The notes: generated from the letters alone by a model not told the origin. Numbered from the stretch's first letter, positions 10,312-47,928 are shown. The stretch is DNA of 64,000 nucleotides from Paludibacteraceae bacterium (GCA_905233255.1 CAJOCN010000004.1:12868-76867); one strand, 5' to 3'. Numbers and translations are program-made.

Positions 10312-11618
10312 AGATCGCTTTTACTACATTAGGATGCAAACTCAATTTTGCGGAGTCCAGTGCCTTGGGTAAGGCACTCTTGGAGCGTGGTCACACGCGT
10401 GCCAAGCAAGGCGAGGAGGCGGATATATGCGTCATCAACACCTGTTCCGTCACGGACGCTGCGGACCATAAGGACCGCCAGATGATCCATCGCATCCGCC
10501 GCAATAACCCGAAGGCCATTCTCATCGTCACGGGTTGCTACGCCCAGCTCAAGCCCGAAGAAATCGCGCATATAGAGGGTGTTGATTATGTCCTTGGTCA
10601 GAACGAGAAATTCAACCTCCCGGCTTTCATCGATAAACTGGAGGCTAATCAGCAATCAGCAATCAGCAATCAGCAATCAGTAATCCACCTCTCCCCAATC
10701 CGCGAGATAGACGATTTCTACGGGGCATACAGCAAGGACGACCGCACGCGGTGCTTCCTCAAGGTGCAGGACGGCTGTAACTATTTCTGCTCCTATTGCA
10801 CCATTCCTCTGGCGCGCGGCAAGAGCCGTAACCCGTCGATCGAATCACTGGTAGAGGAAGCCAAAGAGGCTATCTCCGGCGGCGCGAAGGAGCTTATCCT
10901 GAGCGGTGTGAATATCGGTGATTTCGGGCGGTCCACCAACGAACATTTCATCGACTTGCTCCGTGCGCTGGACAGTATTGAGGGGGATTTTAGGATCCGT
11001 ATATCCAGTTGCGAACCCAACCTGCTGAGCGACGAGATCATTGATTTCGTAGCTGCCAGCCGCCATTTTGCGCCGCATTTCCATATACCTCTCCAGAGCG
11101 GCAGTAACACCGTTCTCAAGATCATGGGACGGCGTTATACGCGCGAGTTGTTCGCCGAACGCGTGGCGCATATCAAGTCCGTCATGCCGCACGCTTTCAT
11201 CGGCGTGGATTGTATGGTGGGAGTTCGCGGCGAGACAGAAGAGTGCTGGGCGGAGTACGTTGATTTTATCAGTTCGTTGGACGTGAGCCAGTTGCATGTC
11301 TTCACCTATTCGGAGCGCGCGAACACGCGGATGTTAGATATGGATCTGATCGTTGTGCAGCAACGCGAGCGGGAGCGCCGCAGCAAACAGCTCCACGCCA
11401 TCTCGGCGGCGAAGACAGAGGCGTTCTACCGCGCCCATGAGGGCTACGAAGCGACCGTCTTATGGGAGGCAAAGAAAGCCGACGGACTCATGTACGGCTT
11501 CACGGAGAACTACATCAAAGTCTCCTGCCCGTACGATAAGGCTAAAGTGAACACGTTTGAGCGCATAATCGTGCCGCGTCCGGATTCGGCAGACATTCCA
11601 ACCGATACACCGGCGTAG
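10308..11618 (+). CDS. mtaB: tRNA methylthiotransferase MtaB (radical SAM MTTase)
   Basis: MKIAFTTLGCKLNFAES opening with the N-terminal Cys triad, and radical SAM CNYFCSYC. ATGA overlap with the upstream stop at 10308-10311. Contains an in-frame AATCAGC heptamer tract. Confidence 0.85.
   Translation: MKIAFTTLGCKLNFAESSALGKALLERGHTRAKQGEEADICVINTCSVTDAADHKDRQMIHRIRRNNPKAILIVTGCYAQLKPEEIAHIEGVDYVLGQNEKFNLPAFIDKLEANQQSAISNQQSVIHLSPIREIDDFYGAYSKDDRTRCFLKVQDGCNYFCSYCTIPLARGKSRNPSIESLVEEAKEAISGGAKELILSGVNIGDFGRSTNEHFIDLLRALDSIEGDFRIRISSCEPNLLSDEIIDFVAASRHFAPHFHIPLQSGSNTVLKIMGRRYTRELFAERVAHIKSVMPHAFIGVDCMVGVRGETEECWAEYVDFISSLDVSQLHVFTYSERANTRMLDMDLIVVQQRERERRSKQLHAISAAKTEAFYRAHEGYEATVLWEAKKADGLMYGFTENYIKVSCPYDKAKVNTFERIIVPRPDSADIPTDTPA
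10647..10685. repeat. Heptamer array AATCAGC x about 5.5 inside mtaB
   Basis: Read directly. Encodes NQQSAISNQQSVI. Confidence 0.95.
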
Positions 11619-18252: not shown

Positions 18253-18359
18253 GCCTCTAAACCTTTGCGGCTGCAAAGGTACTATAAATTTTTCAATTAT
18301 GCAAGATTTTCAGCAAAAAATATCGCCTGTGCTTGTACAAGCAATTTTTTTATTATGCC

Positions 18360-18434
18360 GGATCGACGATTTTGTGCAGAATCGCAGATTATTTTGTATA
18401 AAATCGCAGATTTTTCTTGCAAGAATCGGAGATT
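18360..18434 (+). promoter_or_regulatory. Phased direct-repeat array (GATCGACGATT, AATCGCAGATT x2, AATCGGAGATT) abutting a promoter
   Basis: Motif starts at 18361, 18380, 18402 and 18424. The last three are exactly 22 nt apart. The array ends 5 nt before the -7 box TAccTTTG at 18440-18447. Confidence 0.5.
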
Positions 18435-18484
18435 TTCCGTACCTTTGCACCCGAAATCGTTTATACAAACAATAGTATTAGTAT

Positions 18485-18622
18485 ATGGACCTGAATCACA
18501 ACTCCAAAGAAGCACCGATTACCACCGAGGTGTCGAGTGCCGGCAATGTGCAGAAGAAGTACTATACGGCAGACGAAGCTATCGCCTTCCTTGAGCCGCG
18601 TATCCGTGCTATGTTCCAATGA
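18485..18622 (+). CDS. Possible 45-aa small protein (MDLNHNSKEAPITTEVSSAGNVQKKYYTADEAIAFLEPRIRAMFQ)
   Basis: ATG about 38 nt downstream of a TAccTTTG -7 box. It is followed by copy 1 of the 84-nt repeat, which contains a terminator. Too short for the ORF track and no family recognised. Confidence 0.3.
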   Translation: MDLNHNSKEAPITTEVSSAGNVQKKYYTADEAIAFLEPRIRAMFQ

Positions 18623-18716
18623 AAGAAGTCGTTCACACGCAGCAGGCTCTTTTGCAAATAGGTCATTTATTGGACATTTGTTTATAACCCTCGTCACTCA
18701 CTGACGTTAAACAGGA

Positions 18717-18800
18717 CCAGGTCTGACCTCACCGACAGCGTAAAAAAGCGGTGAATAATTTTATATACAGAGTTTCGGGAACGAGGCTCTGTTTTTTTGT
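18717..18800 (+). repeat. Copy 1 of an 84/85-nt direct repeat (contains an AGGTCTGACCT palindrome, a TCACCG/CGGTGA stem and a terminator)
   Basis: Matches 19489-19573 with two substitutions and a one-T length difference (hand alignment). Confidence 0.9.
18768..18798 (+). terminator. Intrinsic terminator inside repeat copy 1
   Basis: CAGAGTTTCG-GGAA-CGAGGCTCTG (10-bp stem including two G-U pairs, GGAA loop) followed by T7. Confidence 0.7.
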
Positions 18801-18863
18801 GCCTGCTTTTCAGCCCGTAGATGCATCAAAATTTGTAAAAATCAAAAATACTTTCCTATATAC

Positions 18864-18894
18864 TTGCGTATTTCAAAAATTATTTGTAATTTTG
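18864..18894 (+). promoter_or_regulatory. Bacteroidetes-type promoter for the DUF4160/DUF2442 pair
   Basis: cTTG at 18864-18866, then a 20-nt A-rich spacer, then TAatTTTG at 18887-18894. ATG follows at 18923. Confidence 0.6.
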
Positions 18895-18922
18895 CAGCGC
18901 AAAATCATTAAACACGGAATGT

Positions 18923-19225
18923 ATGCCAAAGATTTTTGAATATTTCGGATTTGTCTTTTTCTTTTATTCGAATGAACATGAGCCTATCCATGTGCATGTC
19001 ACCCATAAAGGATGTCAAAGTATTTTTGAACTTATCATGGACAATGGCATTTTAGTAGAGATTCGTGTTCGCGAGAAGGCAGGGGAAGAACCGTTGTCAT
19101 CCAAGGATCAAAAGACAGCCGAGGAATTTATTCGGAAATACAGCAAGAATATAATCACCAAATGGATTAAATTCTTTGTTTTAAGACAGGCAGTAAAGAG
19201 TACAACCATTAAAACCAAATTATAA
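18923..19225 (+). CDS. DUF4160 family protein
   Basis: Opening MPKIFEYFGFVFFFYSNEHEPIHVHV matches the DUF4160 signature (FYxNDHxPxHxH). Confidence 0.8.
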   Translation: MPKIFEYFGFVFFFYSNEHEPIHVHVTHKGCQSIFELIMDNGILVEIRVREKAGEEPLSSKDQKTAEEFIRKYSKNIITKWIKFFVLRQAVKSTTIKTKL

Positions 19226-19227
19226 CT

Positions 19228-19482
19228 ATGAACAGACTTTATATAATAGGAGCAAAAGATGCGGGTAACTGTACTGTGGATTTGCAGTTTAGCGACCAAA
19301 CGACCCGCCGAGTAGATATAGGTGACTTCATCCGTCGTCACCCTCATCCGCAATATAATAAATATCTTGACCCTCGCCATTTCCGCCGCTTCGAAATTGA
19401 GGACGGTAATATTGTCTGGGGCAAGAATTGGGATTTGGTATTCCCGGTAGAACAGTTACACGCAGGTGTAATTGAAGATTAG
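19228..19482 (+). CDS. DUF2442 family protein
   Basis: 84 aa, 2 nt after the DUF4160 stop. Has a DUF2442-like layout (VDLQFSDQTTRRVDI ... IVWGKNWDLVFPVEQL). DUF4160 and DUF2442 genes commonly occur as a pair. Confidence 0.75.
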   Translation: MNRLYIIGAKDAGNCTVDLQFSDQTTRRVDIGDFIRRHPHPQYNKYLDPRHFRRFEIEDGNIVWGKNWDLVFPVEQLHAGVIED

Positions 19483-19488
19483 TGCTAT

Positions 19489-19573
19489 CCAGGTCTGACC
19501 TCACCGACAGCGTAAAAAAGCGGTGAAAAATTTTATATAAAGAGTTTCGGGAACGAGGCTCTGTTTTTTTTGT
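19489..19573 (+). repeat. Copy 2 of the 84/85-nt direct repeat
   Basis: See 18717-18800. Starts 6 nt after the DUF2442 stop. Confidence 0.9.
19540..19571 (+). terminator. Intrinsic terminator inside repeat copy 2
   Basis: Same stem-loop as copy 1, followed by T8. Confidence 0.7.
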
Positions 19574-19625
19574 TTCGATAAAAATGCAGATTTTTTTTGT
19601 GGATGTCTAAAAATCTTTGATTATA

Positions 19626-19657
19626 TTTGCATATTTGAAAAAAAATCTATAATTTTG
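19626..19657 (+). promoter_or_regulatory. Bacteroidetes-type promoter upstream of the WYL gene
   Basis: TTTG at 19626-19629, 20-nt A-rich spacer, TAatTTTG at 19650-19657. Confidence 0.6.
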
Positions 19658-19667
19658 CACACTCATT

Positions 19668-19702
19668 CACTTTGTGGGAGTTTGAAGCAGTAATTTTGCA
19701 GC
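19668..19702 (+). promoter_or_regulatory. Copy 1 of a 35-nt island-specific promoter/operator element (CACTTTGTGGGAGTTTGAAGCAGTAATTTTGCAGC)
   Basis: 32/35 identical to 22499-22533. Contains TTTG and TAatTTTG boxes with a 16-nt spacer. Lies 18 nt before the WYL ATG. Confidence 0.65.
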
Positions 19703-19719
19703 CGAAAAATTTAACGCAC

Positions 19720-20661
19720 ATGGAAACGAAGAAAAAACTGAAATCATCAACTGCTTATCTTTTCAACTGCTATATTTGGCTGTTGAACACTATCGCACGC
19801 GGTCCTATTTCACGCGCAGCGATAGACGAGAAATGGGCGCACGCTTCTGCTAATTCATATAAGCAGGATTGTATCCCTGAGAGTAATTTCCATCGTTGGA
19901 AAGACACTATAAAAGAGCTTTTCGGCATCAAAATCAAATGTAACGGGAATAACGAGTACTACATTGAGGAAGCTACCGACTTGCGCGGTGGGGATCTGCG
20001 TATGCGTGCTCTAAACCTTATGTCCGCAAACAATCTACTCAAGGACAGCGAAGAACTATCCGACAGGATTTTGTTTGAGCCTGTTCCTTCCGGAGAAAAG
20101 TTCTTGACTCCTATCATTGAAGCTATGCGTGATATGACCGCCATCAACATGACGTATCAAGGTTTTACGCGTCAAAAACCGGCTACTTTCATCGTTGAAC
20201 CATATTGTCTCAAGGTGTTCAGGCAACGCTGGTATATGCTTGCGTACTCTCCCGGTCTTGATAAGGCGATGATTTACTCTCTCGATCGTGTTCACGCAGT
20301 TGAACCGACCAAGCAGAAATATAAGTTGCCAAAGGGCTTCAATGCAGAAGAGTACTTTAAGAATACGTACGGAGTTACCGGCATGGATGAAGAGCCGGAG
20401 GATATCGAGATATGTATCGATGCTATGCAGGCAAATTACTTACGTACACTGCCTCTCCATTCCTCACAAGAGGAGATGGAACGCAATGATGATTATTCCA
20501 TATTCCGCTTTCATATGGTTCCTTCCTACGAGTTCTTGCAGGAACTTCGCAAGTATGGATCTGACGTGGAAGTGATTTCTCCGGAATCGGTTCGTGCTGA
20601 ATTTAGAGCAGACACTGAAAGTCTATATCGTATTTATAAACAAATGGAATCCTGGGTATGA
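19720..20661 (+). CDS. WYL-domain transcriptional regulator (N-terminal HTH, central WYL, C-terminal extension)
   Basis: FRQRWYMLAYSPG is a typical WYL-domain core. The N-terminal YLFNCYIWLLNTIARGPISRAAI is HTH-like. ATG at 19720 chosen (METKKKL), and it sits downstream of two promoter-like elements. Confidence 0.8.
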   Translation: METKKKLKSSTAYLFNCYIWLLNTIARGPISRAAIDEKWAHASANSYKQDCIPESNFHRWKDTIKELFGIKIKCNGNNEYYIEEATDLRGGDLRMRALNLMSANNLLKDSEELSDRILFEPVPSGEKFLTPIIEAMRDMTAINMTYQGFTRQKPATFIVEPYCLKVFRQRWYMLAYSPGLDKAMIYSLDRVHAVEPTKQKYKLPKGFNAEEYFKNTYGVTGMDEEPEDIEICIDAMQANYLRTLPLHSSQEEMERNDDYSIFRFHMVPSYEFLQELRKYGSDVEVISPESVRAEFRADTESLYRIYKQMESWV

Positions 20662-21179
20662 AAGATTTTGTAGCTATAGACTTTGAGACCGCTAATGGTA
20701 AGCGCTCCAGTATCTGCTCTGTTGGCGCAGTGATTGTGAAGAACGGAGAAATCGTTGATTCCTTCTATTCCCTGGTGAAGCCCACTCCCAACTACTATGC
20801 ATGGTTCTGCCAAGAGGTGCACGGTTTGGACTACTGCGACACAGATGACGCTGACTTCTTCCCGGAAGTGTGGTCGCGGTTGCAGGAAAAGGTGCATGCT
20901 TATTTCCCGTTCATCGAAGATGGAGAAGTGCCCTTTGTTGCACATAACGCACGCTTTGATGAAGGATGCTTGCGTGCTGCCTTTGCTACCTTTGAGTTGG
21001 CTTTGCCGAACTATGAGTTCATGGACACCCTTGCAGCATCGCGCAATTATTTTGGCTCCGCGCTCCTGAACCACCAACTGCACACGGTCGCAGCTGCTTG
21101 TGGCTACGATCTGCAGAACCACCACCATGCTCTCGCCGACGCTGAAGCCTGCGCATGGATAGCGAGAGAAATTGTTTAA
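20658..21179 (+). CDS. DEDDh 3'-5' exonuclease (DnaQ/epsilon-like)
   Basis: ExoI AIDFETAN, ExoII VAHNARFDEGCL, ExoIII HHALADAEACAW (H-x4-D). ATGA start/stop overlap with the WYL gene. Confidence 0.85.
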   Translation: MKDFVAIDFETANGKRSSICSVGAVIVKNGEIVDSFYSLVKPTPNYYAWFCQEVHGLDYCDTDDADFFPEVWSRLQEKVHAYFPFIEDGEVPFVAHNARFDEGCLRAAFATFELALPNYEFMDTLAASRNYFGSALLNHQLHTVAAACGYDLQNHHHALADAEACAWIAREIV

Positions 21180-21261
21180 TTAATCTATAAATTTACCATT
21201 ATGAAAACAGATGAAGAGTTATTGCTAAATGTTATTAATCACATGAATAGCCTCGCTATGT

Positions 21262-21723
21262 TTGCTCCGCGCACAAATAGAAAAGCTAAGTGATTCTCAA
21301 ATTGCAAAATACGAGGAAGGTGTAGTTTGGCTTTTGACCCAATTGGCCCATCAGACAGAAAATGCCAGCCTGCAAGGAGAGTTCGAGAGCAACGATATGG
21401 TTGCAATAAAAATTTTCCAGTATATATTCGACAGATCAATAGAGGCATTGTACTATGTTATAAAAGGCGAAGACCCAAGCAACATAGTCTTCGATCTAAA
21501 TGAAGTAGGAGACTATTACGAATTATCAATACCCATAGATCTTCAGATGACCATCAACAACGTCGTTCCGCGTATTGTTGGGATTGCCTCAAATCTATAC
21601 CAATTCATGGAAGAGGAAGGGTATATGAAATTACCTCTTGCCAAATGGATGTATTTTTACATGTATGCCTCATCTTTCCTTGCCATGAATTTCCTTTTAG
21701 AACAAGATTTAACAGATAAATAA
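21262..21723 (+). CDS. Hypothetical protein (possibly frameshifted; may originally have started at 21201)
   Basis: The listed ORF begins at a TTG. An ATG ORF starting at 21201 runs into it one frame off at a TTT run. No family recognised. Confidence 0.5.
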   Translation: MLRAQIEKLSDSQIAKYEEGVVWLLTQLAHQTENASLQGEFESNDMVAIKIFQYIFDRSIEALYYVIKGEDPSNIVFDLNEVGDYYELSIPIDLQMTINNVVPRIVGIASNLYQFMEEEGYMKLPLAKWMYFYMYASSFLAMNFLLEQDLTDK

Positions 21724-21750
21724 TTTGTTTAACCTTTAAATTTTAGAATT

Positions 21751-22479
21751 ATGACCGTTGAAGAATTAACTCAAAAACAAGAGAAGTTGCATCAAAAAAT
21801 CAATGCAATAGCAGAAAAATTAAACAATGGACTTGAACCCATTTATGATGGTGTTGGTAATATTCCTATTTACCTCAATTCGCCACTGAAAATAATGTGG
21901 CTGCTCAAAGAATCGTATGACCAAGACAAACAGGGCAATAAAGGTAATGGCAATTGGAGCATATATGATGCCGTTCAAAATGACACTGCATGGTCATATT
22001 TGTCATTTCAAAGAATGGCATATGTGCTCTATGGATATAATAATGGTGTTTATTGCGAGGATAAAGATATGCCGAAGATTAGAAATCGCAAAGAAATGGT
22101 TAAAGATCTTGCAAATCTTGCCTATATTAACATTAATAAACTACCAGGAGGAACCTCATCTGATGATTCTCATATCGCAAGATGTTACAATATATGGAAA
22201 GATATCATTAACGAGCAAATTGAAGTATATAATCCAAATGTTATAATTTTGGGAGGAACAGAGAAATTCTTGGATTTTAAAAACGAATTCATTCAATGTA
22301 AGCATTATGAAAACAAGGATGTAAATCCAAAAATAGAATCAAAGATTTACAAATGGGGCAATCGTTGGGTGATTTCCGTATACCACCCAGGATACATGAT
22401 GAGCACAGAGGTTTATGTGGACATAATAATAGATAGTCTTAAATATGTAGATGAACAAATAAAATCGCACAGAAAATAA
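21751..22479 (+). CDS. Hypothetical protein; weak by-eye resemblance to the uracil-DNA-glycosylase fold
   Basis: 242 aa. The order of short motifs (IMWLLKESY ... ININKLPGG ... VIILGGTEKF ... VYHPGYMM) loosely parallels the UDG-superfamily layout. This is not a confident assignment. Confidence 0.5.
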   Translation: MTVEELTQKQEKLHQKINAIAEKLNNGLEPIYDGVGNIPIYLNSPLKIMWLLKESYDQDKQGNKGNGNWSIYDAVQNDTAWSYLSFQRMAYVLYGYNNGVYCEDKDMPKIRNRKEMVKDLANLAYININKLPGGTSSDDSHIARCYNIWKDIINEQIEVYNPNVIILGGTEKFLDFKNEFIQCKHYENKDVNPKIESKIYKWGNRWVISVYHPGYMMSTEVYVDIIIDSLKYVDEQIKSHRK

Positions 22480-22498
22480 CGGTTTTTACAATCTCCTC

Positions 22499-22533
22499 CA
22501 CTTTGTAGGAGAATGAAGCAGTAATTTTGCAGC
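22499..22533 (+). promoter_or_regulatory. Copy 2 of the 35-nt island-specific promoter/operator element (CACTTTGTAGGAGAATGAAGCAGTAATTTTGCAGC)
   Basis: See 19668-19702. TAatTTTG at 22522-22529. Precedes the metallopeptidase gene at 22577. Confidence 0.65.
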
Positions 22534-22576
22534 GTGATTCGAAAGAGTCGCGCTGTAATTTTAATGTTTTAATGAT

Positions 22577-23362
22577 ATGACGCCCCCTTATTTATCAAAT
22601 TTTGAACAAATCCATCATGAGGCTATAAGACTAGCCGGTTATAAAATGAATGAGATCCGTAATATGGATGAAGAATATATTATAAATGCTTGTTGTGCTT
22701 GCGTTGCTGTTGCATATACTAAGATTCAGAAATATGGTGAAAAGTATTTTGGCGGTTTCTCAAGCAAAATAAATCTTTTTTATCACAAACTATGTCAGGG
22801 ACGTTATTATTTTGAGTCTGGAAATATCAGTATTAATCCGGATGTTATCTTCTCCAAGGAAGAATGCTTTAATGAAGTTCTTTTGCATGAGTTAACGCAT
22901 TCGATATATTATGACCATAGTATTGAATTTTGGCAACACTTGCAGCATCTTTTATATTTGGAAGGTCTCATAAAGGAAAAGAAAGACTTTCGCATAAGTG
23001 AGCAGTCTGGCTCTTACGCAGTATATTATGGGGATAGAAAAATAAATAACGGTAAAAAAATTATGATGCGTTTTATAGAAACTGGGGGTGGTTGTTGGTC
23101 TGACAATATCGAATGTTTGTTCCGTAGAGTCTTTTATTATCAAGATATATTGCGATATCGTAAAACTGGAACTTCTTCTTACCTTATAGATGACAATAGT
23201 AATTTCATTGTGATGGAGCCTATATGGAGAAAATATGCTTTAAGGTACAATATTGAGCCGATATTTCTCTTACAGATGAGTTGTATGGATGAGGATAGGA
23301 TGAGAAAAAATGCAGTCAATGTTAATAACTATGAAACATTCAAGCCAATACAGCAGTTATGA
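22577..23362 (+). CDS. DUF45/YgjP-like HExxH metallopeptidase-fold protein with a C-terminal extension
   Basis: LLHELTHSIYYDHSIEFWQHL matches the DUF45 signature (HELxHxxxxxHSxxFW). Confidence 0.7.
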   Translation: MTPPYLSNFEQIHHEAIRLAGYKMNEIRNMDEEYIINACCACVAVAYTKIQKYGEKYFGGFSSKINLFYHKLCQGRYYFESGNISINPDVIFSKEECFNEVLLHELTHSIYYDHSIEFWQHLQHLLYLEGLIKEKKDFRISEQSGSYAVYYGDRKINNGKKIMMRFIETGGGCWSDNIECLFRRVFYYQDILRYRKTGTSSYLIDDNSNFIVMEPIWRKYALRYNIEPIFLLQMSCMDEDRMRKNAVNVNNYETFKPIQQL

Positions 23363-23651
23363 TAAATCAGAGTGGAGTCATAGCCATGACTTCCCTATCG
23401 AGGAGATCTGGAATACAGAAACCACGATGGCTGCTTTTATCGCTCCTCGATTAAGAGCATTTAAGAGTTTAAAGAAGCATGGCTTCCCTTCGGAGATGGG
23501 TAGCGAGCGACAGTGGAATAGCACTATCCAAAAGATGATAGATGCCTTTGAAATATTAAGTCGCCCCTATACTCCAACAGACGAAGAGAATCCAATCGTA
23601 GAGGAAGGTCTTGACCTCTTCCGCAAATACTATCGTAATCTTTGGGACTAA
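23331..23651 (+). CDS. Hypothetical protein
   Basis: Same-strand ORF that overlaps the upstream gene end. The start is uncertain (ATG at 23310, 23319 or 23331). No family recognised. Confidence 0.45.
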   Translation: MKHSSQYSSYDKSEWSHSHDFPIEEIWNTETTMAAFIAPRLRAFKSLKKHGFPSEMGSERQWNSTIQKMIDAFEILSRPYTPTDEENPIVEEGLDLFRKYYRNLWD

Positions 23652-23669
23652 TGTAAATTTTTAACAGTT

Positions 23670-23924
23670 ATGGATACTCGATCTATCAATGACCAACTCG
23701 AACTGTTGCGTCTCAAAGAACTCTTTATGTCTGATATTGACATCCGTAGCAAAATGGCTATGCTTATCTGCGAAGAAGACTCATCCTACAGCGAGTTCTG
23801 TCAACTCACACATTGCACACCGGACATAGCGAAAATGTTTGCAGAACAATTGTTAATAGATGTTTTTCTTACTCCAGAAGAAATTGCCTCCGAGCGCGAA
23901 AGATTAGAAAGGATGAAACTATAA
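23670..23924 (+). CDS. Hypothetical protein (84 aa)
   Basis: Tightly spaced same-strand ORF in the island operon. No family recognised. Confidence 0.5.
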   Translation: MDTRSINDQLELLRLKELFMSDIDIRSKMAMLICEEDSSYSEFCQLTHCTPDIAKMFAEQLLIDVFLTPEEIASERERLERMKL

Positions 23925-23936
23925 TTCTATTTTACT

Positions 23937-24575
23937 ATGATACAATATGACGAACAGACCCTTCAACTTATTGAAGAAGAAATTACCTACATTTATCAAT
24001 CCGATGTAACAGGCTATCCGCAAAGTGAATTTTTGCTTGACTTACGGAAAAGTATCTTGAACGAGCAAGCATGTACGCGTAAAGCTCAAGAAGAACTTCT
24101 TCCTGACATAATAGCCTTTAATGACGCCTTGCATGACGCGCTTAAACATATGTTTGACCGCGCGCATGAACTTTATCGTCAGATGTCAGCTATTCAACCA
24201 GACATTATGTTAACCGCCAAATGTTATCTTGCATATGACTATCCTGCCTTGCACCCCTACCAAAAAGAAGACAGACAAGATTTGTTTGATGCAATATGTG
24301 ATTTCGGTTGGAACCAACTTTATGCAGATGGGGTTACTTTTGCGTTGGAATTACCGCGTGATATAGACATGCCTTTCGACACCATCAGAGGTATGGACTG
24401 CACGCCGTTTAACTGGAATGAAGGTCTTGACCCAGAACTTACGAAAGATCTCCATATCAATCGTGCCTTCCACAATCTCTTTGACCATACAAAATTTGCT
24501 CTCACAGATTTTATCTTTTGTCGAGATTTTGTCTTTGAGTATAGCACTATTAGCGAGGAAAAACTACTAATCTAA
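23937..24575 (+). CDS. Hypothetical protein (212 aa)
   Basis: Tightly spaced same-strand ORF. No family recognised. Confidence 0.6.
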   Translation: MIQYDEQTLQLIEEEITYIYQSDVTGYPQSEFLLDLRKSILNEQACTRKAQEELLPDIIAFNDALHDALKHMFDRAHELYRQMSAIQPDIMLTAKCYLAYDYPALHPYQKEDRQDLFDAICDFGWNQLYADGVTFALELPRDIDMPFDTIRGMDCTPFNWNEGLDPELTKDLHINRAFHNLFDHTKFALTDFIFCRDFVFEYSTISEEKLLI

Positions 24576-24584
24576 TTAACAAGC

Positions 24585-24809
24585 ATGAAAACATTTGTAA
24601 GAAAACACTTTAGAGATGAGTATGGAGTAGAATTTTCCACTTGTGGTGACATTACCACACTCACGCGAATGCCATCGGGGTTAAAGGGAGCATATCGAAT
24701 ACCGGATTTTGTGACTGACATATCAAAAAAAATAATTTTTGACTCATTTTTGGTAATTTTGGACAAACAAATAAAAAATATCTTCTTCCGATTTTGCCGC
24801 TTGATGTGA
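24585..24809 (+). CDS. Hypothetical protein (74 aa), possibly a gene fragment
   Basis: Last ORF of the same-strand run. The segment YRIPDFVTDISKKIIFDSF faintly resembles BspA-type LRR units. Confidence 0.35.
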   Translation: MKTFVRKHFRDEYGVEFSTCGDITTLTRMPSGLKGAYRIPDFVTDISKKIIFDSFLVILDKQIKNIFFRFCRLM

Positions 24810-24944
24810 ACGTAATCGCAAAATCTATATGAATTTTGTGGTTATAATCGTAAAATCTTTATAAAACATTTTAATATTTTATGGTATGATCTACATCCTC
24901 CGCGGGGAGAAGGTTTACAATGCGCAAGGCCGTTAGTAAAGTGA

Positions 24945-24995
24945 CAAAGGGACTAAGTACAAAGTACTAAGGGACTAAGTACCAAGTACAAAGGA
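24945..24995. repeat. Degenerate tandem repeat (AAGGGACTAAGTAC.AAGTAC units)
   Basis: AAAGGGACTAAGTACAAAGTACT / AAGGGACTAAGTACCAAGTACAAAGG read directly. Lies near the 3' side of the island operon. Confidence 0.7.
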
Positions 24996-25083
24996 ACAAA
25001 ACGGGCGGCTTAAAGAATGAGTCGCCCGTGTGTTGTGTCCAGATAATCATAGATGTATTGCTTAAGCATCTTATAAGTGCTGA

Positions 25084-25320: not shown

Positions 25321-25399
25321 GTGAAAAATGAAAGATGAAAGATGAAAGATGAAAGATGAAAGATGAAAGATGAAAAATGAAAGATGAAAGATGAAAGAT
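25321..25399. repeat. Heptamer array, GAAAGAT/GAAAAAT x about 11
   Basis: Read directly: gaaaaat, gaaagat x5, gaaaaat, gaaagat x3, gaaaaat (hand count). Confidence 0.95.
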
Positions 25400-25652
25400 G
25401 AAAAATATTTGCATATTTCAAAAAAAAGTTGTACCTTCGGTCCTCCCTATTTATAAAATATAAACAGGGTCCCACCGAAAATACGTTCGCATATTGCCGG
25501 ACATATACTAAGCACCGCGGACATTTTTTGAGAACCGCTAAAACGGTTTCCTGTTTTGCCCATACAAATACCATCTTATGCAAGCATAGCTATTATTTGT
25601 CTGTGCTAAACAGATAAAATTTCATTTTATTTTTCAAAAAAATATCCGAACG

Positions 25653-25684
25653 TTTGTGTATGTGCAAAATTTGTAGTATCTTTG
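25653..25684 (+). promoter_or_regulatory. Bacteroidetes-type promoter for the wHTH gene
   Basis: TTTG at 25653-25656, 20-nt spacer, TAtcTTTG at 25677-25684. ATG at 25708. Confidence 0.6.
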
Positions 25685-25707
25685 CAGACGCAAAAGAAAA
25701 ACGAGTT

Positions 25708-26064
25708 ATGGCAGGGAAAAGTTTTTATTTCATTATACAATCATGGATGTTGGAGGACATGCAACTTCCGCTGGGCGATGCGGCTGTATATGCCTATATC
25801 CATGGTCTGACGCGGTCGGAAGAGTTAGGAAAGAAAGGATGGCATGGATCCATCCGCAGGTTGGCAAAAGTGTTACACACCAGTCCTTCCACGATGAATG
25901 ATATCATAAATCGATTAGAAAAGAAAGGTTTCATCCATCTCTATAACGGCTTTATTACCAGCACAATAAACCGAGAATCGGCTCCCGGAACTCCTGAAGA
26001 AAAGCCCATTGACCGAAATCCGGACAAAAAATCAGAGGAGAAGCCTGATGGAGTGCCATTTTAG
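25708..26064 (+). CDS. Winged-helix/HTH DNA-binding protein (replication-organiser-like N-terminal domain)
   Basis: FYFIIQSWMLEDMQLPLGDAAVYAYIHGL...GSIRRLAKVLHTSPSTMNDIINRLEKKGFI looks like a wHTH. The tail is low-complexity and charged. ATG at 25708 is preferred to the listed 25654 start. Confidence 0.55.
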   Translation: MAGKSFYFIIQSWMLEDMQLPLGDAAVYAYIHGLTRSEELGKKGWHGSIRRLAKVLHTSPSTMNDIINRLEKKGFIHLYNGFITSTINRESAPGTPEEKPIDRNPDKKSEEKPDGVPF

Positions 26065-26469: not shown

Positions 26470-26898
26470 ATGAAAAAGTATCTGTTTATTATTTTAGGTA
26501 CCCTGCTGCTCGTGCCGGCTATGGCGCAGAGTCTGCTCACCCCCGAACAACTCGCTAAACGCGAGAAGAGAAAGAACCTGACCGTCAAGGAATGGAACAC
26601 CGACGCCAAATCCAAAACGCGCTGGTTGGACCATGTCAAGGTCTATGACGACCAGGGACGCTGCATCGAGGAGATCGAGTATGCTTCTTACGGCCAGCGC
26701 AGCCGCGTCACCAGCAAGTACGACGACGTCACCGGAAAAGTAGTGGAGGAAGTGGAGTACAACGACCGCAACCGCCCCGTACGTATCCGCAAATACGAGT
26801 GGAACGAAGATGGCACCAAAGCCAAGCAGTACAACTATCTGCCCAACGGAAAACTCTACTCCGTCAAAGTCTTCGAATATATCTTCTCGGACAAATAA
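26470..26898 (+). CDS. Small secreted protein with short beta-hairpin-like repeats
   Basis: Signal peptide MKKYLFIILGTLLLVPAMAQ. Repeated xEEIEY / xEEVEY / KYEW / VFEY units. Confidence 0.6.
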   Translation: MKKYLFIILGTLLLVPAMAQSLLTPEQLAKREKRKNLTVKEWNTDAKSKTRWLDHVKVYDDQGRCIEEIEYASYGQRSRVTSKYDDVTGKVVEEVEYNDRNRPVRIRKYEWNEDGTKAKQYNYLPNGKLYSVKVFEYIFSDK

Positions 26899-27020: not shown

Positions 27021-27260
27021 ATGCGTACAACATTTAATCGCCTTCGTGCAGTAAAAGACAGTCTTCCTCACGGAAGTATGGACGCCATCGCAGCAGAGTT
27101 AGGTCTTAGTGGAGATGAGGTTAGAGCTTACTTCAATGGTGAAGGAAACGCTGACTACCATCTGGAGCCGGGTTTTGATGGCGGTATTGTTGATTTTACC
27201 AACACTCGTATTCTGGAGGTTGCCCTGCGTCGCGCATGGGAGGCTCAGAATGCGTTATAA
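27021..27260 (+). CDS. Small hypothetical protein (79 aa), possibly HTH-like
   Basis: Preceded by TAtcTTTG at 26954-26961. The segment MDAIAAELGLSGDEVRAYF is HTH-like. No family recognised. Confidence 0.4.
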   Translation: MRTTFNRLRAVKDSLPHGSMDAIAAELGLSGDEVRAYFNGEGNADYHLEPGFDGGIVDFTNTRILEVALRRAWEAQNAL

Positions 27261-27300
27261 GGCAGTGACCGCCCATCTGTTAACGGTTACAAAGAGAGTA

Positions 27301-28221
27301 ATGGCTCTGGTGCTTTGCATCGGAGCGTTACCTTTTGTATTTAGCGCGGGCGCGTACGCGGGAGAAAAGGCGAAAGGCAATATAAAGGCGAAAGGCGAAG
27401 GGTTGGTTAAAGGCGAAGGGTTAGAGGCGAAAGAGGCGAAAGAGGCGAAAGAGGAAAAGAGGGATATCGCACAATGGCTCTGGGAGGACTACAAAAAGCC
27501 GGTAGGGCTGACCTACAACGCCCAGGCAAGGTTACAAGCCTCCTACCTCTGGCGCGGTCTGTATGCCGGAGCAGCCAACATACAAGCCTCGGCGAACGTG
27601 GGCTACGGAGGGCTCTATCTGGATATGTGGTGGAACGTCGGCGTAACGGACTGGACTTTCCGCACATTCCAGCCGGAGGTCGATCTGAGTCTCGGTTTCA
27701 ACCGGTGGGGACTGGAGGTGTTTGTACTGTACGTGTATAATTTCAATACGGGCTTCTTCGATTTCGGCAATTATCCGAACAAGGGCAACCGCTTGGAGAT
27801 AGACGCCGCTTACACGCTGAGCAAAAAGATTCCGCTGAAGTTCCTGTGGTCGAGCCGCGTAGCCGCTTCGGATTGCTTTGTCAACGCCGCCGGAGACACC
27901 GTACGGGCGTTCTCCAGTTATTTCGAACTGAGTTATACCCATAACTTCCCGTTGGGGTTCAGTCTGTACGGAGCTGTCGGCATGACGCCATGGAAAAGTA
28001 TCTATAGCGACTTTGACAAGGATTTTGCGGTGGTGAATGTAGAACTCCGCGCACGCAAAGACTGGTCCGTAAGCACCCGTTGCGGCATGATGCTGCAAGT
28101 CCAGCTGACCGTCAACCCGAATGCGCTGGCAACCGACAGAGCCACCGCACGGTGGCACCCCTATGCACCCGAAGGGCAGAGCATAAACGCCAATATTACA
28201 TACGGAGTGTACTTGAAATAA
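27301..28221 (+). CDS. Outer-membrane beta-barrel protein, paralog 1 (TorF/Gcw_chp-like putative porin)
   Basis: Signal peptide MALVLCIGALPFVFSAGAYA (an alternative ATG is at 27250). Shares SYLWRGLY...ASANVGY and MTPWKSIYSDF...FAVVNVELR blocks with the next gene. A K/E/G-rich tract after the signal peptide is encoded by a short-repeat array. Confidence 0.6.
   Translation: MALVLCIGALPFVFSAGAYAGEKAKGNIKAKGEGLVKGEGLEAKEAKEAKEEKRDIAQWLWEDYKKPVGLTYNAQARLQASYLWRGLYAGAANIQASANVGYGGLYLDMWWNVGVTDWTFRTFQPEVDLSLGFNRWGLEVFVLYVYNFNTGFFDFGNYPNKGNRLEIDAAYTLSKKIPLKFLWSSRVAASDCFVNAAGDTVRAFSSYFELSYTHNFPLGFSLYGAVGMTPWKSIYSDFDKDFAVVNVELRARKDWSVSTRCGMMLQVQLTVNPNALATDRATARWHPYAPEGQSINANITYGVYLK
27365..27463. repeat. 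Degenerate AAAGGCG / AAAGAGGCG tandem array inside porin paralog 1
   Basis: Read directly. Translated as GEKAKGNIKAKGEGLVKGEGLEAKEAKEAKEEKR. Reverse-complement relatives occur at 17368-17418, and a short relative at 34614-34637. Confidence 0.85.
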
Positions 28222-28306
28222 TTTGAAGATTTGAAAATTTGAAGATTTGAAGATTTGAAAATTTGAAGATTTGAAAATTTGAAGATTTGAAAATTTGAAG
28301 ATTTGA
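28213..28306. repeat. Octamer array, (A/G)ATTTGAA x about 11
   Basis: Starts at the stop codon of porin paralog 1 and ends about 28 nt before the ATG of paralog 2. Eleven ATTTGA units by hand count. Confidence 0.95.
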
Positions 28307-28333
28307 TTCACAATTTATAATTTATAATTGAAA

Positions 28334-29212
28334 ATGAAAAAGGTATTAGTAATTGCCGCTGCGATGATGGCGGTGTTGATGTCCGCTTATGCGGAGGAGA
28401 AAAAGTCTCTCGTGACCTTCCAGTACGAAGCCGGCGCAGAAGTCGTCAGCTCGTATATCTGGCGTGGTCTGTACAACGGCGGTCTGAGTTTCCAACCGAC
28501 CGCCAGCGTGGGTTTTGACGCCGTGGATGAGGATATCCAGTTCCGCGTAGGTGTCTGGGCTTCGTTAGGTGCTTCCGACTGGCAGTTCAAGAAAGGTACG
28601 CCCGACGCCGACGGCAACAAGTACTACACGTATTTCGTGCCGGAGACGGACTTCATGGCGAGTCTGCGTCTGTGGGGTGCTACCCTGGGTGTAACCCACT
28701 ATTACTACTACGGCGGCGCACCTTTCTTCTCGGGCCTGACCGACGACGGCGGTAGCCAGACGGAGGTACAGATCGGTTATGACTTAGGACAGACATTGGA
28801 GAACGTGAACCTCTATTTCAACTGGTACTCCATCGTTGCCGGTAACGACGTTTACGAAGCAACAGACAAGGACGGCAATCCCTACGACAAACGCGCCTTT
28901 TCCAGTTACATCGAGATCGGCTACCGTCTGGATCTGATGTATGACATGACCTTAGAGTTCCAGCTCGGTATGACGCCGTGGAAGAGTCTCTACACGGACT
29001 ATGAAGGCGGTTTTGCAGTCAATAATATCTATGCCCGTTTCGGCAAGACATGGAACGTAAAGGAGATTTGCGACATCGAGCTCTTCGCATCGGGTAGCAT
29101 CAACACCTACAAAATAAACAAAGACAATCTCTTTGTCAATGCTGCCGGTGATGCCAAGATAGGCGGCACGCAGAGATTGAACGGTACCATCGGTGTTGGC
29201 TTCTGGTTCTGA
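28334..29212 (+). CDS. Outer-membrane beta-barrel protein, paralog 2 (TorF/Gcw_chp-like putative porin)
   Basis: Signal peptide MKKVLVIAAAMMAVLMSAYA. SYIWRGLYNGG and MTPWKSLYTDY blocks. C-terminal ...GVGFWF. ATG at 28334 is preferred to the TTG at 28328. Confidence 0.65.
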   Translation: MKKVLVIAAAMMAVLMSAYAEEKKSLVTFQYEAGAEVVSSYIWRGLYNGGLSFQPTASVGFDAVDEDIQFRVGVWASLGASDWQFKKGTPDADGNKYYTYFVPETDFMASLRLWGATLGVTHYYYYGGAPFFSGLTDDGGSQTEVQIGYDLGQTLENVNLYFNWYSIVAGNDVYEATDKDGNPYDKRAFSSYIEIGYRLDLMYDMTLEFQLGMTPWKSLYTDYEGGFAVNNIYARFGKTWNVKEICDIELFASGSINTYKINKDNLFVNAAGDAKIGGTQRLNGTIGVGFWF

Positions 29213-46950: not shown

Positions 46951-47928
46951 TTAACTCAGATCATATCCGTAATGGCGAAGACGAGAGGTGTTGGAACGCC
47001 AGTCGCGGTCCACTTTGACGAACAGTTGTAAGAAGACCTGTTTCTGGAAGAAATCCTCAATCTCTTTGCGAGCCTGGGAGCCGACACGCTTTAGAGCGCT
47101 GCCGGCTTTTCCTATTATTATACCCTTCTGGCTCTCGCGCTCGCAGTAGATGACAGCAGAAATCTCGATGAGAGATTTCTTGGTGATTGGTGATTGGTGA
47201 TTGGTGATTGGCTGTTCATCGTGGTCTATAAAGGACTCCACCTCCACTTCGACCGAATAAGGAATCTCCTTATCGTAGTTCTGGAGGATCTTCTCGCGGA
47301 TAATCTCGTTGACGAAGAACCGCTCGGATTTATCGGTCAACTGGTCTTTGGGGAAGAACGGAGCCCCAACGGGCAGTGCCTCTTTGATGGCATCAAAGAG
47401 TTGCGCCACGCCGAAACGCTCCTGCGCGGAGATGGGGAAGATCTCCGCCTCCGGCAGTTGGGTATGCCAGAAAGCAACGAGGTTCTCCAATGTCTCCTGG
47501 GTCGTCAGGTCAATCTTATTGATGATGAGGAACACTTTCGTGCCCGCTTCCGCCATCCGCTTGACTTTCGTCAGGAAATCGGGATTACGGTCAATGGTAT
47601 CTTGTGGCTCCGTCACATAGAGCAGCACATCCGCGTCCACAAGGGCGGAACGGCTGAACTCCAGCATTTTCTCCTGCAGTCTGTAATTAGGCGAGAGCAC
47701 GCCCGGCGTATCGGAATAGACCATCTGGAAATCCTCTCCGTTGACGATTCCCATGATCCGGTGACGCGTCGTCTGGGCCTTGGAGGTAATGATTGAGAGT
47801 CGCTCACCCACCAGCGCGTTCATTAATGTAGATTTGCCGACATTGGGATTACCAACAATGTTCACAAACCCACTTCGGTGGGCCTGTGAACATTGTTTAT
47901 TTGTCATTTGTAATTGGTTATTTGCCAT
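46951..47928 (-). CDS. era: GTPase Era
   Basis: GNPNVGKST (G1), DTPG (G3), NKID (G4), C-terminal KH domain (IIGKAGSALKRVG). Two heptamer tracts lie in frame. Confidence 0.92.
   Translation of the reverse strand: MANNQLQMTNKQCSQAHRSGFVNIVGNPNVGKSTLMNALVGERLSIITSKAQTTRHRIMGIVNGEDFQMVYSDTPGVLSPNYRLQEKMLEFSRSALVDADVLLYVTEPQDTIDRNPDFLTKVKRMAEAGTKVFLIINKIDLTTQETLENLVAFWHTQLPEAEIFPISAQERFGVAQLFDAIKEALPVGAPFFPKDQLTDKSERFFVNEIIREKILQNYDKEIPYSVEVEVESFIDHDEQPITNHQSPITKKSLIEISAVIYCERESQKGIIIGKAGSALKRVGSQARKEIEDFFQKQVFLQLFVKVDRDWRSNTSRLRHYGYDLS
47182..47211. repeat. Heptamer array GGTGATT x4 inside era
   Basis: Read directly. Encodes ...QPITNHQSPITKK... on the minus strand, between the GTPase and KH domains. 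Confidence 0.9.
47890..47924. repeat. Degenerate heptamer tract (CATTGTT TATTTGT CATTTGT AATTGGT TATTTGC) at the era 5' end
   Basis: Read directly. Encodes the N-terminal extension MANNQLQMTNKQ. Confidence 0.7.

Follow-up and report, generated by a model that had tools for sequence, protein, structure and literature searches.

Introduction

Defence islands headed by WYL-domain regulators and defence glycosylases of the uracil-DNA glycosylase (UDG) type are both known already. PafBC and DriD are WYL activators of DNA-damage regulons that sense single-stranded DNA (ssDNA), and defence hotspots of P2/P4-type prophages and satellites were reportedly described by Rousset et al. in 2022. Brig1 and Brig2, DNA glycosylases of the UDG family, protect bacteria from phages that carry modified bases, and the best structural match reported for Brig1 is 4ZBY (PMC11078745; 10.1101/2025.10.29.685425). 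Here we analyse an AT-rich block of same-strand genes next to addA, among them a WYL regulator and a UDG-fold protein encoded by gene 6 (g6), in a 64,000-nucleotide stretch from a Paludibacteraceae bacterium (GCA_905233255.1 CAJOCN010000004.1:12868-76867; hereafter the window), using database searches, structure prediction and comparison with sister loci. Comparison with its relatives places the block, as one copy, in a recurrent family of islands that swap cassettes and occur in rumen Bacteroidales (Paludibacteraceae and relatives). Positions are window coordinates; L-numbers denote comparison loci or contigs, and c-numbers denote clusters of cassette proteins.

The regulator resembles BrxR and CapW in having WYL and WCX domains, in being encoded by the first gene, on the same strand and with a palindrome in its own promoter, and in being followed by variable genes that target nucleic acids. 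It differs from them in that its match to CapW is marginal (E 0.26) and its best solved match is PafBC (E 1.3e-6), in that its N-terminal ~100 residues have no Pfam helix-turn-helix (HTH) match, and in that the island genes belong to neither BREX, CBASS nor any other named system and the promoter element is reiterated inside the island with an added leader hairpin. The first-pass annotation of this DNA had proposed a WYL-domain HTH regulator; the WYL domain stands, with a WCX domain after it, and by sequence the protein is not closer to BrxR or CapW than to other WYL regulators. With PafBC (Actinobacteria) and DriD (Caulobacter) the locus has in common that PafBC is the closest solved relative of its WYL/WCX region and that the controlled genes act on DNA. 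Those proteins are core chromosomal regulators of dispersed regulons, however, whereas the window WYL protein lies on a mobile, mosaic, AT-rich island and is predicted to control adjacent cassettes.

Like Brig1 and Brig2, g6 has a UDG-superfamily fold (its best solved match, as for Brig1, is 4ZBY) and occurs in AT-rich, horizontally acquired neighbourhoods of defence type. Its conserved motifs are KExYD, NINK and HP(G/S), by contrast with GLNPG and NFELY in Brig1, and hhalign of the g6 profile against Brig1 (sequence from the paper's supplement) gave a probability of 0.08% and E 0.61, so we rejected g6 as a Brig1 homologue. Unlike Brig1 and Brig2, g6 lies in a WYL-led multi-gene island, often after the acidic protein g5. 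The P2/P4-type hotspots share with the family conserved flanks around a slot, unrelated defence genes that replace each other in close relatives, and, for this family, cassettes common to phage-like contigs; the islands studied here are chromosomal, with no integrase or phage genes noticed, and their frame consists of WYL and g9-g10 in place of phage genes. Integron arrays likewise consist of same-strand cassettes with reiterated structured elements between them and include toxin-antitoxin cassettes. Here, unlike in integrons, the repeats are promoter/terminator modules and not attC sites, each unit has its own promoter, and no integrase was noticed in searches of the window island open reading frames (ORFs) and selected cassette representatives, a subset of the ORFs of all islands. 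Among candidate systems, PDC-S48 is matched by the window exonuclease (E 3.8e-22), though over its N-terminal region only (model positions 4-163 of 411), and PDC-S26 and PDC-S02 are matched full length by slot or flank genes of sister islands, though not in the window.

Results

A recurrent family of WYL-headed islands

Homologue look-ups of g6 and gene 10 (g10), together with metagenome scans using the WYL-orthologue alignment, yielded 41 non-redundant WYL-headed islands, 22 of which extend to g10. They have a common order: the WYL gene, a DNA-enzyme slot of at least one gene, DUF6140, a secreted 203-amino-acid (aa) protein (c5), optional cassettes (LRR_4, FtsK/SpoIIIE, DnaB_C, SprT zincin, g8, ZapA-like), the g9-g10 pair and, last, LRR_5 or DnaB_C. 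Where the gene after WYL is readable (37 islands), it is UDG-like in 14, an exonuclease in 8 and PDDEXK_4 in 4, with c22, c60, c31 or c80 in the rest. Slots also contain DUF262/GmrSD-like genes, the adjacencies exonuclease-g5 and g5-UDG recur, and proteins of the g6 type are the commonest cargo of the family. L064 (10943-11686) and L070 (6474-7151) have 94%-identical flanks and backbone, and their slots hold a UDG-like protein of 247 aa and an unrelated protein of 225 aa, respectively, which shows cassette replacement in place.

The islands occupy unrelated sites (lpxD/HD, DUF3316/gyrB, RmuC/DUF456 and addA) and have a GC content of 0.39-0.42 in hosts of 0.45-0.53. Their genes are 67-95% identical where housekeeping neighbours are 35-47% identical; AddA is 38% and AddB 35% identical where g9 and g10 are 67-80%, and a flank gene reaches 47%, against 79% for WYL. 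The first-pass annotation had taken the eleven genes of the block for a candidate novel module. That view has to be given up: they form a mosaic from a cassette pool, in which WYL adjoins an exonuclease in 8 of 37 islands and the zincin is present in 3 of 41, and two of the window genes are damaged.

Variants of the layout were seen in several loci. L078 (2149-9212) holds two WYL-headed islands in tandem, the second WYL gene following the g9-g10 end of the first. In L038/L039 (8473-9411), from another Paludibacteraceae genome, the sister WYL gene is interrupted by a stop codon and annotated as a fragment of 218 aa; g5, g7 and g9 are missing from this island, which has a 389-aa protein with a g10-like C-terminal half. 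L082-L084 have a more distant WYL (52% identical) followed by a c31 protein of up to 382 aa, the N-terminus of which looks by eye like a candidate SLOG/LOG-type nucleotide-binding domain, and L084 also has a DUF262/GmrSD-like gene.

Composition, extent and site of the block

GC content along the window is 0.54-0.58 at 12-18 kb (addB-addA), falls to 0.33-0.46 at 18-27 kb and is ~0.52 beyond. This confirms the AT-rich block that had been described (18.3-27 kb, at 0.33-0.46 against 0.50-0.58), and all eleven of its plus-strand ORFs were recovered at their positions. The end had been put at 25030; GC recovers only after 27 kb, and the low-GC block therefore reaches ~27.0 kb.

By its AddA, the window belongs to rumen Bacteroidales resembling Paludibacteraceae, the best matches being those of UBA3808 (88%) and of another metagenome-assembled genome (72%). 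A genome scan with AddA identified 27 other species that share addB-addA and the genes beyond them with the window in the same order; the similarity ends exactly at the addA start, and in none of the 27 do island genes lie upstream of addA. Within the species, every contig long enough to show the island has it, a result that includes an exact look-up of the right-flank lipoprotein. We searched for an empty site and could define none, because the regions upstream of addA in the 27 species are unrelated both to the island and to the right flank of the window.

As candidate insertion targets or elements, tRNA genes and known RNA families were sought; no tRNA and no Rfam match turned up. Family scans of the island ORFs (Pfam, PADLOC, PHROG, NCBIfam) found no integrase or transposase, in line with what had been said of the block. 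Among the window's ten largest island ORFs, a set without gene 11 (g11) and a 45-aa ORF, Pfam recognised no recombinase family, and the precomputed Pfam lists for the sister loci showed none either. The earlier claim that the block is accessory and not core is borne out by its absence upstream of addA in 27 species and by orthologous islands at other chromosomal sites; by synteny, composition and identity, the block is accessory and horizontally acquired.

The WYL regulator and its promoter elements

19720-20661, + strand: HTH-WYL-WCX regulator (Pfam WYL and WCX; HTH putative), first gene of every family island
19654-19703, + strand: class A promoter element before the WYL gene, without leader hairpin (nhmmer matches, alignments)
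22480-22575, + strand: class B promoter element before the zincin gene, a direct repeat (blastn/nhmmer) with a palindrome over the -33, a -7 box and a leader hairpin

The regulator scores 47.3 bits against Pfam WYL (cut-off 21.8; E 2e-12) and 41.2 bits against WCX (cut-off 23.9; E 2e-10), and matches the PADLOC WYL model at E 1.7e-28. Besides PafBC and CapW, with the E-values given above, the nearest solved relatives of its WYL/WCX region include chain 8tp8, a DeoR-family WYL regulator that we take to be DriD. Residues 1-120 have no Pfam HTH match and are the best-conserved part among the orthologues, which are 52-93% identical and head the 41 islands.

The class A element consists of an imperfect palindrome, CTC-N12/13-GAG, with the -33 TTTG at its centre and the -7 box GTAATTTTGC after it; it is kept upstream of WYL across other loci. 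Taking both classes together, the ~75-nt promoter element occurs 98 times across 53 loci, each time on the gene strand, at 2-3 copies per island, and every copy (98/98) has the candidate CTC-N12/13-GAG palindrome over a TTTG-type -33, with a perfect Bacteroidetes -7 box. The class B copy lies before the metallopeptidase gene, where a second promoter had indeed been proposed. Its leader hairpin, of 12 bp (22527-22558), precedes a U-rich tract, folds at -18.6 kcal/mol (z -4.8) and was scored as terminator-like; leader hairpins in general fold at -16 to -19 kcal/mol (z about -5). They have the sequence CAGCGTGAyyC...GrGTCrCGCTG with a loop of varying length and a U-rich tail, and are confined to the internal copies of the element. 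Of the 12 pairs in their consensus fold, 2 show compensatory changes; covariation is weak (term -0.6), the stem being conserved mostly in sequence. A sigma-70 scan returned 32 sites against 27.5 expected and was uninformative, as was to be expected in Bacteroidetes.

A UDG-fold protein

21751-22479, + strand: gene 6 (g6), 242 aa, UDG-superfamily fold, candidate DNA glycosylase (AF2 and Foldseek)

The AF2 model of g6 has a pLDDT of 89.9, and its top ten Foldseek matches in the PDB all belong to the UDG superfamily (family 4, TDG and UdgX; probability 0.99-1.0, TM 0.39-0.60); SMUG1 is also among the PDB matches. The best is 4zby, a family-4 UDG of S. tokodaii (E 1.4e-4, probability 1.0), and a search of BFVD placed phage UDGs and UDG-like domains of phage polymerases on top. 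From the model we are confident that g6 has a UDG-superfamily fold; the resemblance, which the first-pass annotation had called faint, is stronger than claimed.

Sequence profiles point the same way over a short region: against PDB sequences, the g6 profile matches family-4 UDGs (E 0.12) in the region of the C-terminal HP(S) motif, and the invariant H212-P213 aligns with the HPS motif (motif B) of family-4 UDG. K53, E54, Y56, N127, K130, H212 and P213 are invariant or nearly so; at the motif-A position, g6 has a conserved K53-E54-x-Y56-D, unlike the canonical GQDPY, GEAPG and GINPG types. An exhaustive profile search collected 3427 representatives of the g6 clade at E <= 1e-3 and 470 at E <= 1e-30, and the clade has neither a Pfam family nor a name. 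A sister protein in L102 weakly matches the Pfam UDG family PF03167 (E 0.0088), and a 282-aa class in the slot cluster is homologous to g6 (probability 96.6%). We also considered the c22 and c60 slot proteins as UDG-like and left them unassigned: the motifs had been seen by eye only, hhalign against the g6 profile gave E 0.024 and 0.0039 with probability <10%, and PDB sequence searches gave nothing relevant.

The exonuclease and gene 5

20658-21179, + strand: DEDDh (DnaQ-like) 3'-5' exonuclease (Pfam RNase_T/Rv2179c-like)
21201-21723, + strand: gene 5 (g5), disrupted here (alignment with L001/L002, translation)

The exonuclease matches the Pfam RNase_T/Rv2179c-like families at E 1e-17 to 1e-18 (RNase_T 62.8 bits, cut-off 24) and the PADLOC DEDDh model at E 6e-24, in addition to its partial PDC-S48 match. 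Its nearest PDB relative is the PolC exonuclease 2p1j (E 7e-11), and its best PHROG is the phage 'DNA polymerase exonuclease subunit' phrog_192 (E 1e-33). The DEDDh residues are all intact (Exo I D8/E10, Exo II D101, Exo III H157/D162), and the WYL stop overlaps the exonuclease start as ATGA at 20658-20661, so both the overlap and the enzyme identity given by the first-pass annotation are upheld; the overlap is consistent with translational coupling.

In same-species contigs, g5 encodes an acidic protein of 183 aa (pI 4.2), and its usual place is after the exonuclease and before a UDG-like or PDDEXK_4 gene. The window copy has a 29-bp frameshifting deletion near 21268 relative to those contigs. 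The ATG at 21201 reads 30 codons to a stop, and only a TTG-started frame of 153 aa stays open; the ORF reported before is present, but the full protein is not. The g5 family comprises 17 clusters, none of them named, and Pfam, PADLOC, PHROG and NCBIfam scans assigned no family to g5, g8 or g9.

Genes 7 to 11 and the right end

22577-23362, + strand: gene 7 (g7), 261 aa, SprT/YgjP(DUF45)/WLM-type zinc metallopeptidase (Pfam and motif)
23331-23651, + strand: gene 8 (g8), ~103-106 aa (homologues)
23670-23924, + strand: gene 9 (g9), acidic, 84-88 aa, pI 4.5, directly upstream of g10
23937-24575, + strand: gene 10 (g10), acidic, 212 aa, the best-conserved backbone gene after WYL
24585-24809, + strand: gene 11 (g11), 74 aa, truncated remnant of a BspA-type LRR_5 protein (tblastn against L041 and L044)
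25554-25669, + strand: conserved segment of ~115 nt, a hairpin and then promoter-like sequence (blastn, 75-76% identity)

The optional g7 zincin has the HExxHx5H motif HELTHSIYYDH at residues 104-114 and scores above cut-off against Pfam YgjP-like (32.6 bits, cut-off 26) and SprT-like (27.6 bits, cut-off 25.6), as expected of the DUF45/YgjP-type HExxH metallopeptidase it had been taken for. Its best PDB matches are proabylysin (E 0.0027) and Wss1 (E 0.024); the C-terminal ~130 residues lie outside the assigned part. Homologues of g8 with 58-82% identity occur in L036, L038 and L041, g8 is present in 7 of the 22 full islands, and its C-terminal 18 residues match phrog_11543. Directly after g9 comes g10 in 21 of 21 cases. 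The g10 protein has 1190 homologues, many above 90% identity, and many invariant His/Asp residues, with no Pfam, PADLOC, PHROG or NCBIfam match; we set aside its AF2 prediction, made on an 18-sequence alignment, since at a pLDDT of 40.7 no fold could be read from it.

The ORF reported as g11 is present, but it is an N-terminal stub and not a whole protein: it corresponds to no more than the first ~46 residues of an LRR_5 protein which sister islands encode whole, at 280 aa (intact homologue, Pfam LRR_5 E 2.5e-38). A few dozen bases past this match, the DNA at 24720-24803 resembles that downstream of the LRR gene in L041. The 25554-25669 segment also follows closely on the LRR gene in L041 and L044, and we infer it to be a candidate right end of the island unit.

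The low-GC stretch runs on at 25660-26064 and 26470-26898, with a MarR/HTH_24-like winged-helix gene, a 62-aa ORF and a lipoprotein-like gene of 142 aa, none of which was found in sister islands. To the right of the window island lie paired porin-like genes (27109-29212). Three other contigs have homologues of them (29-52% identity) next to a WYL island, there on its other side and on the other strand (e.g. L093 676-2457, L046 606-1379); this may reflect a preferred neighbourhood or coincidence. Tandem arrays of 7-8-nt units (TGAAAGA x11.7; ATTTGAAG x10.8) occur at 25322-25403, 28221-28306, 10647-10685, 47180-47211 and 55520-55563, at least two of them directly upstream of promoter-like sequences (25403, 28289). 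We considered short tandem repeats as an island feature and rejected them, as they are spread throughout the window.

The left end

18485-18622, + strand: 45-aa ORF that precedes the first R copy and has a Bacteroidetes-type promoter of its own
18717-18798, + strand: R repeat copy 1, 82 nt, ending in a terminator-like hairpin and T-run (direct repeat)
18923-19225, + strand: DUF4160 protein, first gene of a toxin-antitoxin-like pair (Pfam PF13711, E 1.2e-11)
19228-19482, + strand: tentative DUF2442-like protein, second gene of the pair (Pfam PF10387, 15.6 bits)
19489-19570, + strand: R repeat copy 2 (direct repeat)

The 45-aa ORF is called as a gene in the same-species contigs L003/L004. The two R copies are 98% identical over 82 nt and bracket the DUF4160/DUF2442 pair; terminator-like sites lie at 18767-18792 in copy 1 (fold z -2.7) and at 19541-19562 in copy 2. 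The DUF4160 part of this pair, as annotated in the first pass, is secure (45.1 bits, cut-off 23); the DUF2442 assignment is tentative, its score lying under the cut-off of 23.9. Copy 2 forms part of a conserved left end common to L061, L077 and L079. The R module also brackets a DUF1016 (PDC-S02) nuclease gene in L077 (1280-1352, 2938-2999) and, in L090 (8252-8373, 9014-9071, 9718-9818), DUF4160/DUF2442 and a RelE-like toxin-antitoxin pair. These arrangements of R-bracketed small cassettes upstream of WYL suggest cassette insertion or duplication via the repeat.

Discussion

A scan against PADLOC-DB v2 found no named anti-phage system in the block, in agreement with the first-pass annotation; it returned generic WYL and DEDDh/PDC-S48 matches only and no match among g5-g10 (g11 was outside the scan). 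Sister islands carry genes of a more definite kind: a slot PDDEXK_4 gene matches PDC-S26 (E 9e-88, full length), an upstream DUF1016 gene matches PDC-S02 (E 4e-135, full length) and a DUF262 gene matches HEC-06/type IV models (E 5e-42). DUF4160/DUF2442 and RelE-like cassettes lie upstream of WYL in islands. A distant relative of g6 sits with Fic, AAA_21+RloB, DnaB_C and WYL genes, and relatives on E. faecium plasmids adjoin a restriction-modification system.

We consider defence against invading DNA the most likely role of this WYL-controlled island, a view that we hold with moderate confidence from gene content and context. The WYL protein would bind the palindrome over the -33 of the near-identical promoters at 19654-19703 and 22480-22530, thereby controlling both its own gene and the transcription units further along. 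If PafBC and DriD are a guide, its WYL domain may sense a signal derived from nucleic acid, such as ssDNA, and the leader hairpin and U-rich tail of the internal promoters could keep basal expression low or stabilise the mRNA. The 3'-5' exonuclease, with its overlapping start and intact catalytic residues, would act on foreign DNA; g6, whose activity we predict from its fold, would, like Brig1 and Brig2, cut a uracil-like or modified base out of foreign DNA, and the abasic sites so created would block replication; the SprT-type zincin may be an optional member of the effectors. What survives of the defence or nucleic-acid-targeting module first proposed is an accessory island of defence type; the single eleven-gene system falls, and the window copy is partly decayed.

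Several observations weigh against a defence role. The closest solved relative of the WYL protein is the DNA-damage regulator PafBC, not BrxR or CapW; the Pfam UDG family PF03167 does not match g6, and hhalign found no sequence homology between g6 and Brig1. The PDC models are guilt-by-association candidates only, the PDC-S26 and PDC-S02 genes belong to sister islands and not to the window, and the backbone genes (g8, g9, g10, DUF6140 and c5) match no defence model in PADLOC. Two genes, g5 and g11, are damaged in the window copy, so the island may be decaying here. Finally, island-type cassettes and the promoter element also stand beside an ardA/protease gene pair in phage-like contigs, where they could mark phage early or counter-defence genes.

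An extended form of the defence reading, which we offer tentatively, would make the islands an integrase-less cassette platform of Bacteroidales, in which genes with promoter/leader-hairpin or terminator modules are swapped between islands and phages and switched by WYL. The g6 clade would then be a set of new defence glycosylases against non-canonical phage bases, with g5 as partner or inhibitor and the exonuclease finishing off the damaged DNA.

The phage-like contigs lend some weight to another explanation, that the block is a phage-derived accessory or early region. It would then be a fragment, surviving or transferred, of the variable AT-rich region carried by a temperate phage (or satellite) of rumen Bacteroidales; its genes would serve that element in host takeover, counter-defence, replication or superinfection exclusion, and WYL would be the element's own switch. 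Six related IMG/VR contigs (L105-L110; e.g. L106 563-12062) encode a head-maturation protease (phrog_94, E 1e-33) with a conserved 320-aa gene alongside, putatively the capsid gene, and ArdA (E 3.5e-26). An AT-rich variable region immediately before ardA and the protease gene holds the exact promoter element and cassettes of the island type (a WYL orthologue at 60%, c28 at 85%, UDG-like, g10-like, FtsK-like and LRR_5). The exonuclease's match to phrog_192, the optional FtsK/SpoIIIE, DnaB_C and ZapA-like cassettes, and the acidic character of g9 and g10 fit this origin as well; DNA-mimic anti-restriction proteins are often acidic. Because PHROGs recognised the protease alone on such a contig, the viral nature of these contigs is only moderately supported.

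No chromosomal island locus, however, nor the window, has the protease, the 320-aa gene or ArdA. Between host genes at different sites, at least 22 islands have retained the same block from WYL to g10, which makes random prophage decay unlikely. Neither g6 nor g10 had a match in 50,697 cultured phage records. Peptide-pattern scans of IMG/VR found neither g10 nor the WYL alignment, although these scans are insensitive, since a DNA-pattern scan did find two phage-like contigs with cassettes. A location on phages would also fit defence, prophages being known carriers of defence hotspots. Given the cassettes and promoter element near the protease gene and ardA, a phage-accessory or counter-defence origin retains some weight, and we regard it as rather unlikely.

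We find it improbable that the block is a DNA-damage-inducible island for repair or tolerance, in which a PafBC/DriD-like WYL protein senses ssDNA and calls on enzymes of base excision, end processing and DNA-protein-crosslink removal. To our knowledge, LexA/SOS is commonly missing in this phylum, and such an island would agree with PafBC as nearest solved relative of the regulator (and with the 8tp8 match), with the fact that every assignable enzyme acts on DNA and has a repair counterpart, and with a promoter element shared as in a small regulon. It agrees poorly with an AT-rich, horizontally transferred island that is missing from most related species and variable in site, with a slot interchangeable with PDC-S26 and GmrSD-like genes and toxin-antitoxin cassettes upstream, with a zincin in only 3 of 41 islands, and with two genes broken here without evident consequence. 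That the genes form no functional unit and are unrelated acquisitions sharing an insertion-prone site and strong local promoters, as the mosaic content, the two damaged genes and the many optional cassettes might suggest, is very improbable in view of a conserved order with WYL first in 41 of 41 islands, the constant g9-g10 pair (21/21) and recurrent exonuclease-g5 and g5-UDG adjacencies, 98 copies of the promoter/leader element in one orientation, and the strong conservation of g10 among its 1190 homologues.

The large unnamed UDG-fold clade tied to WYL regulators appears to be undescribed, as does a modular island family whose reiterated promoter/hairpin modules are common to chromosomes and phage-like contigs. 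If the defence reading is true, the g6 clade would add a new glycosylase family to anti-phage immunity, and the islands would offer a WYL regulon that is tractable and comes with a defined candidate operator, from a phylum in which little is understood of promoters or of signalling upon damage or infection. They would also show rumen Bacteroidales shuffling defence cargo without a recognisable recombinase.

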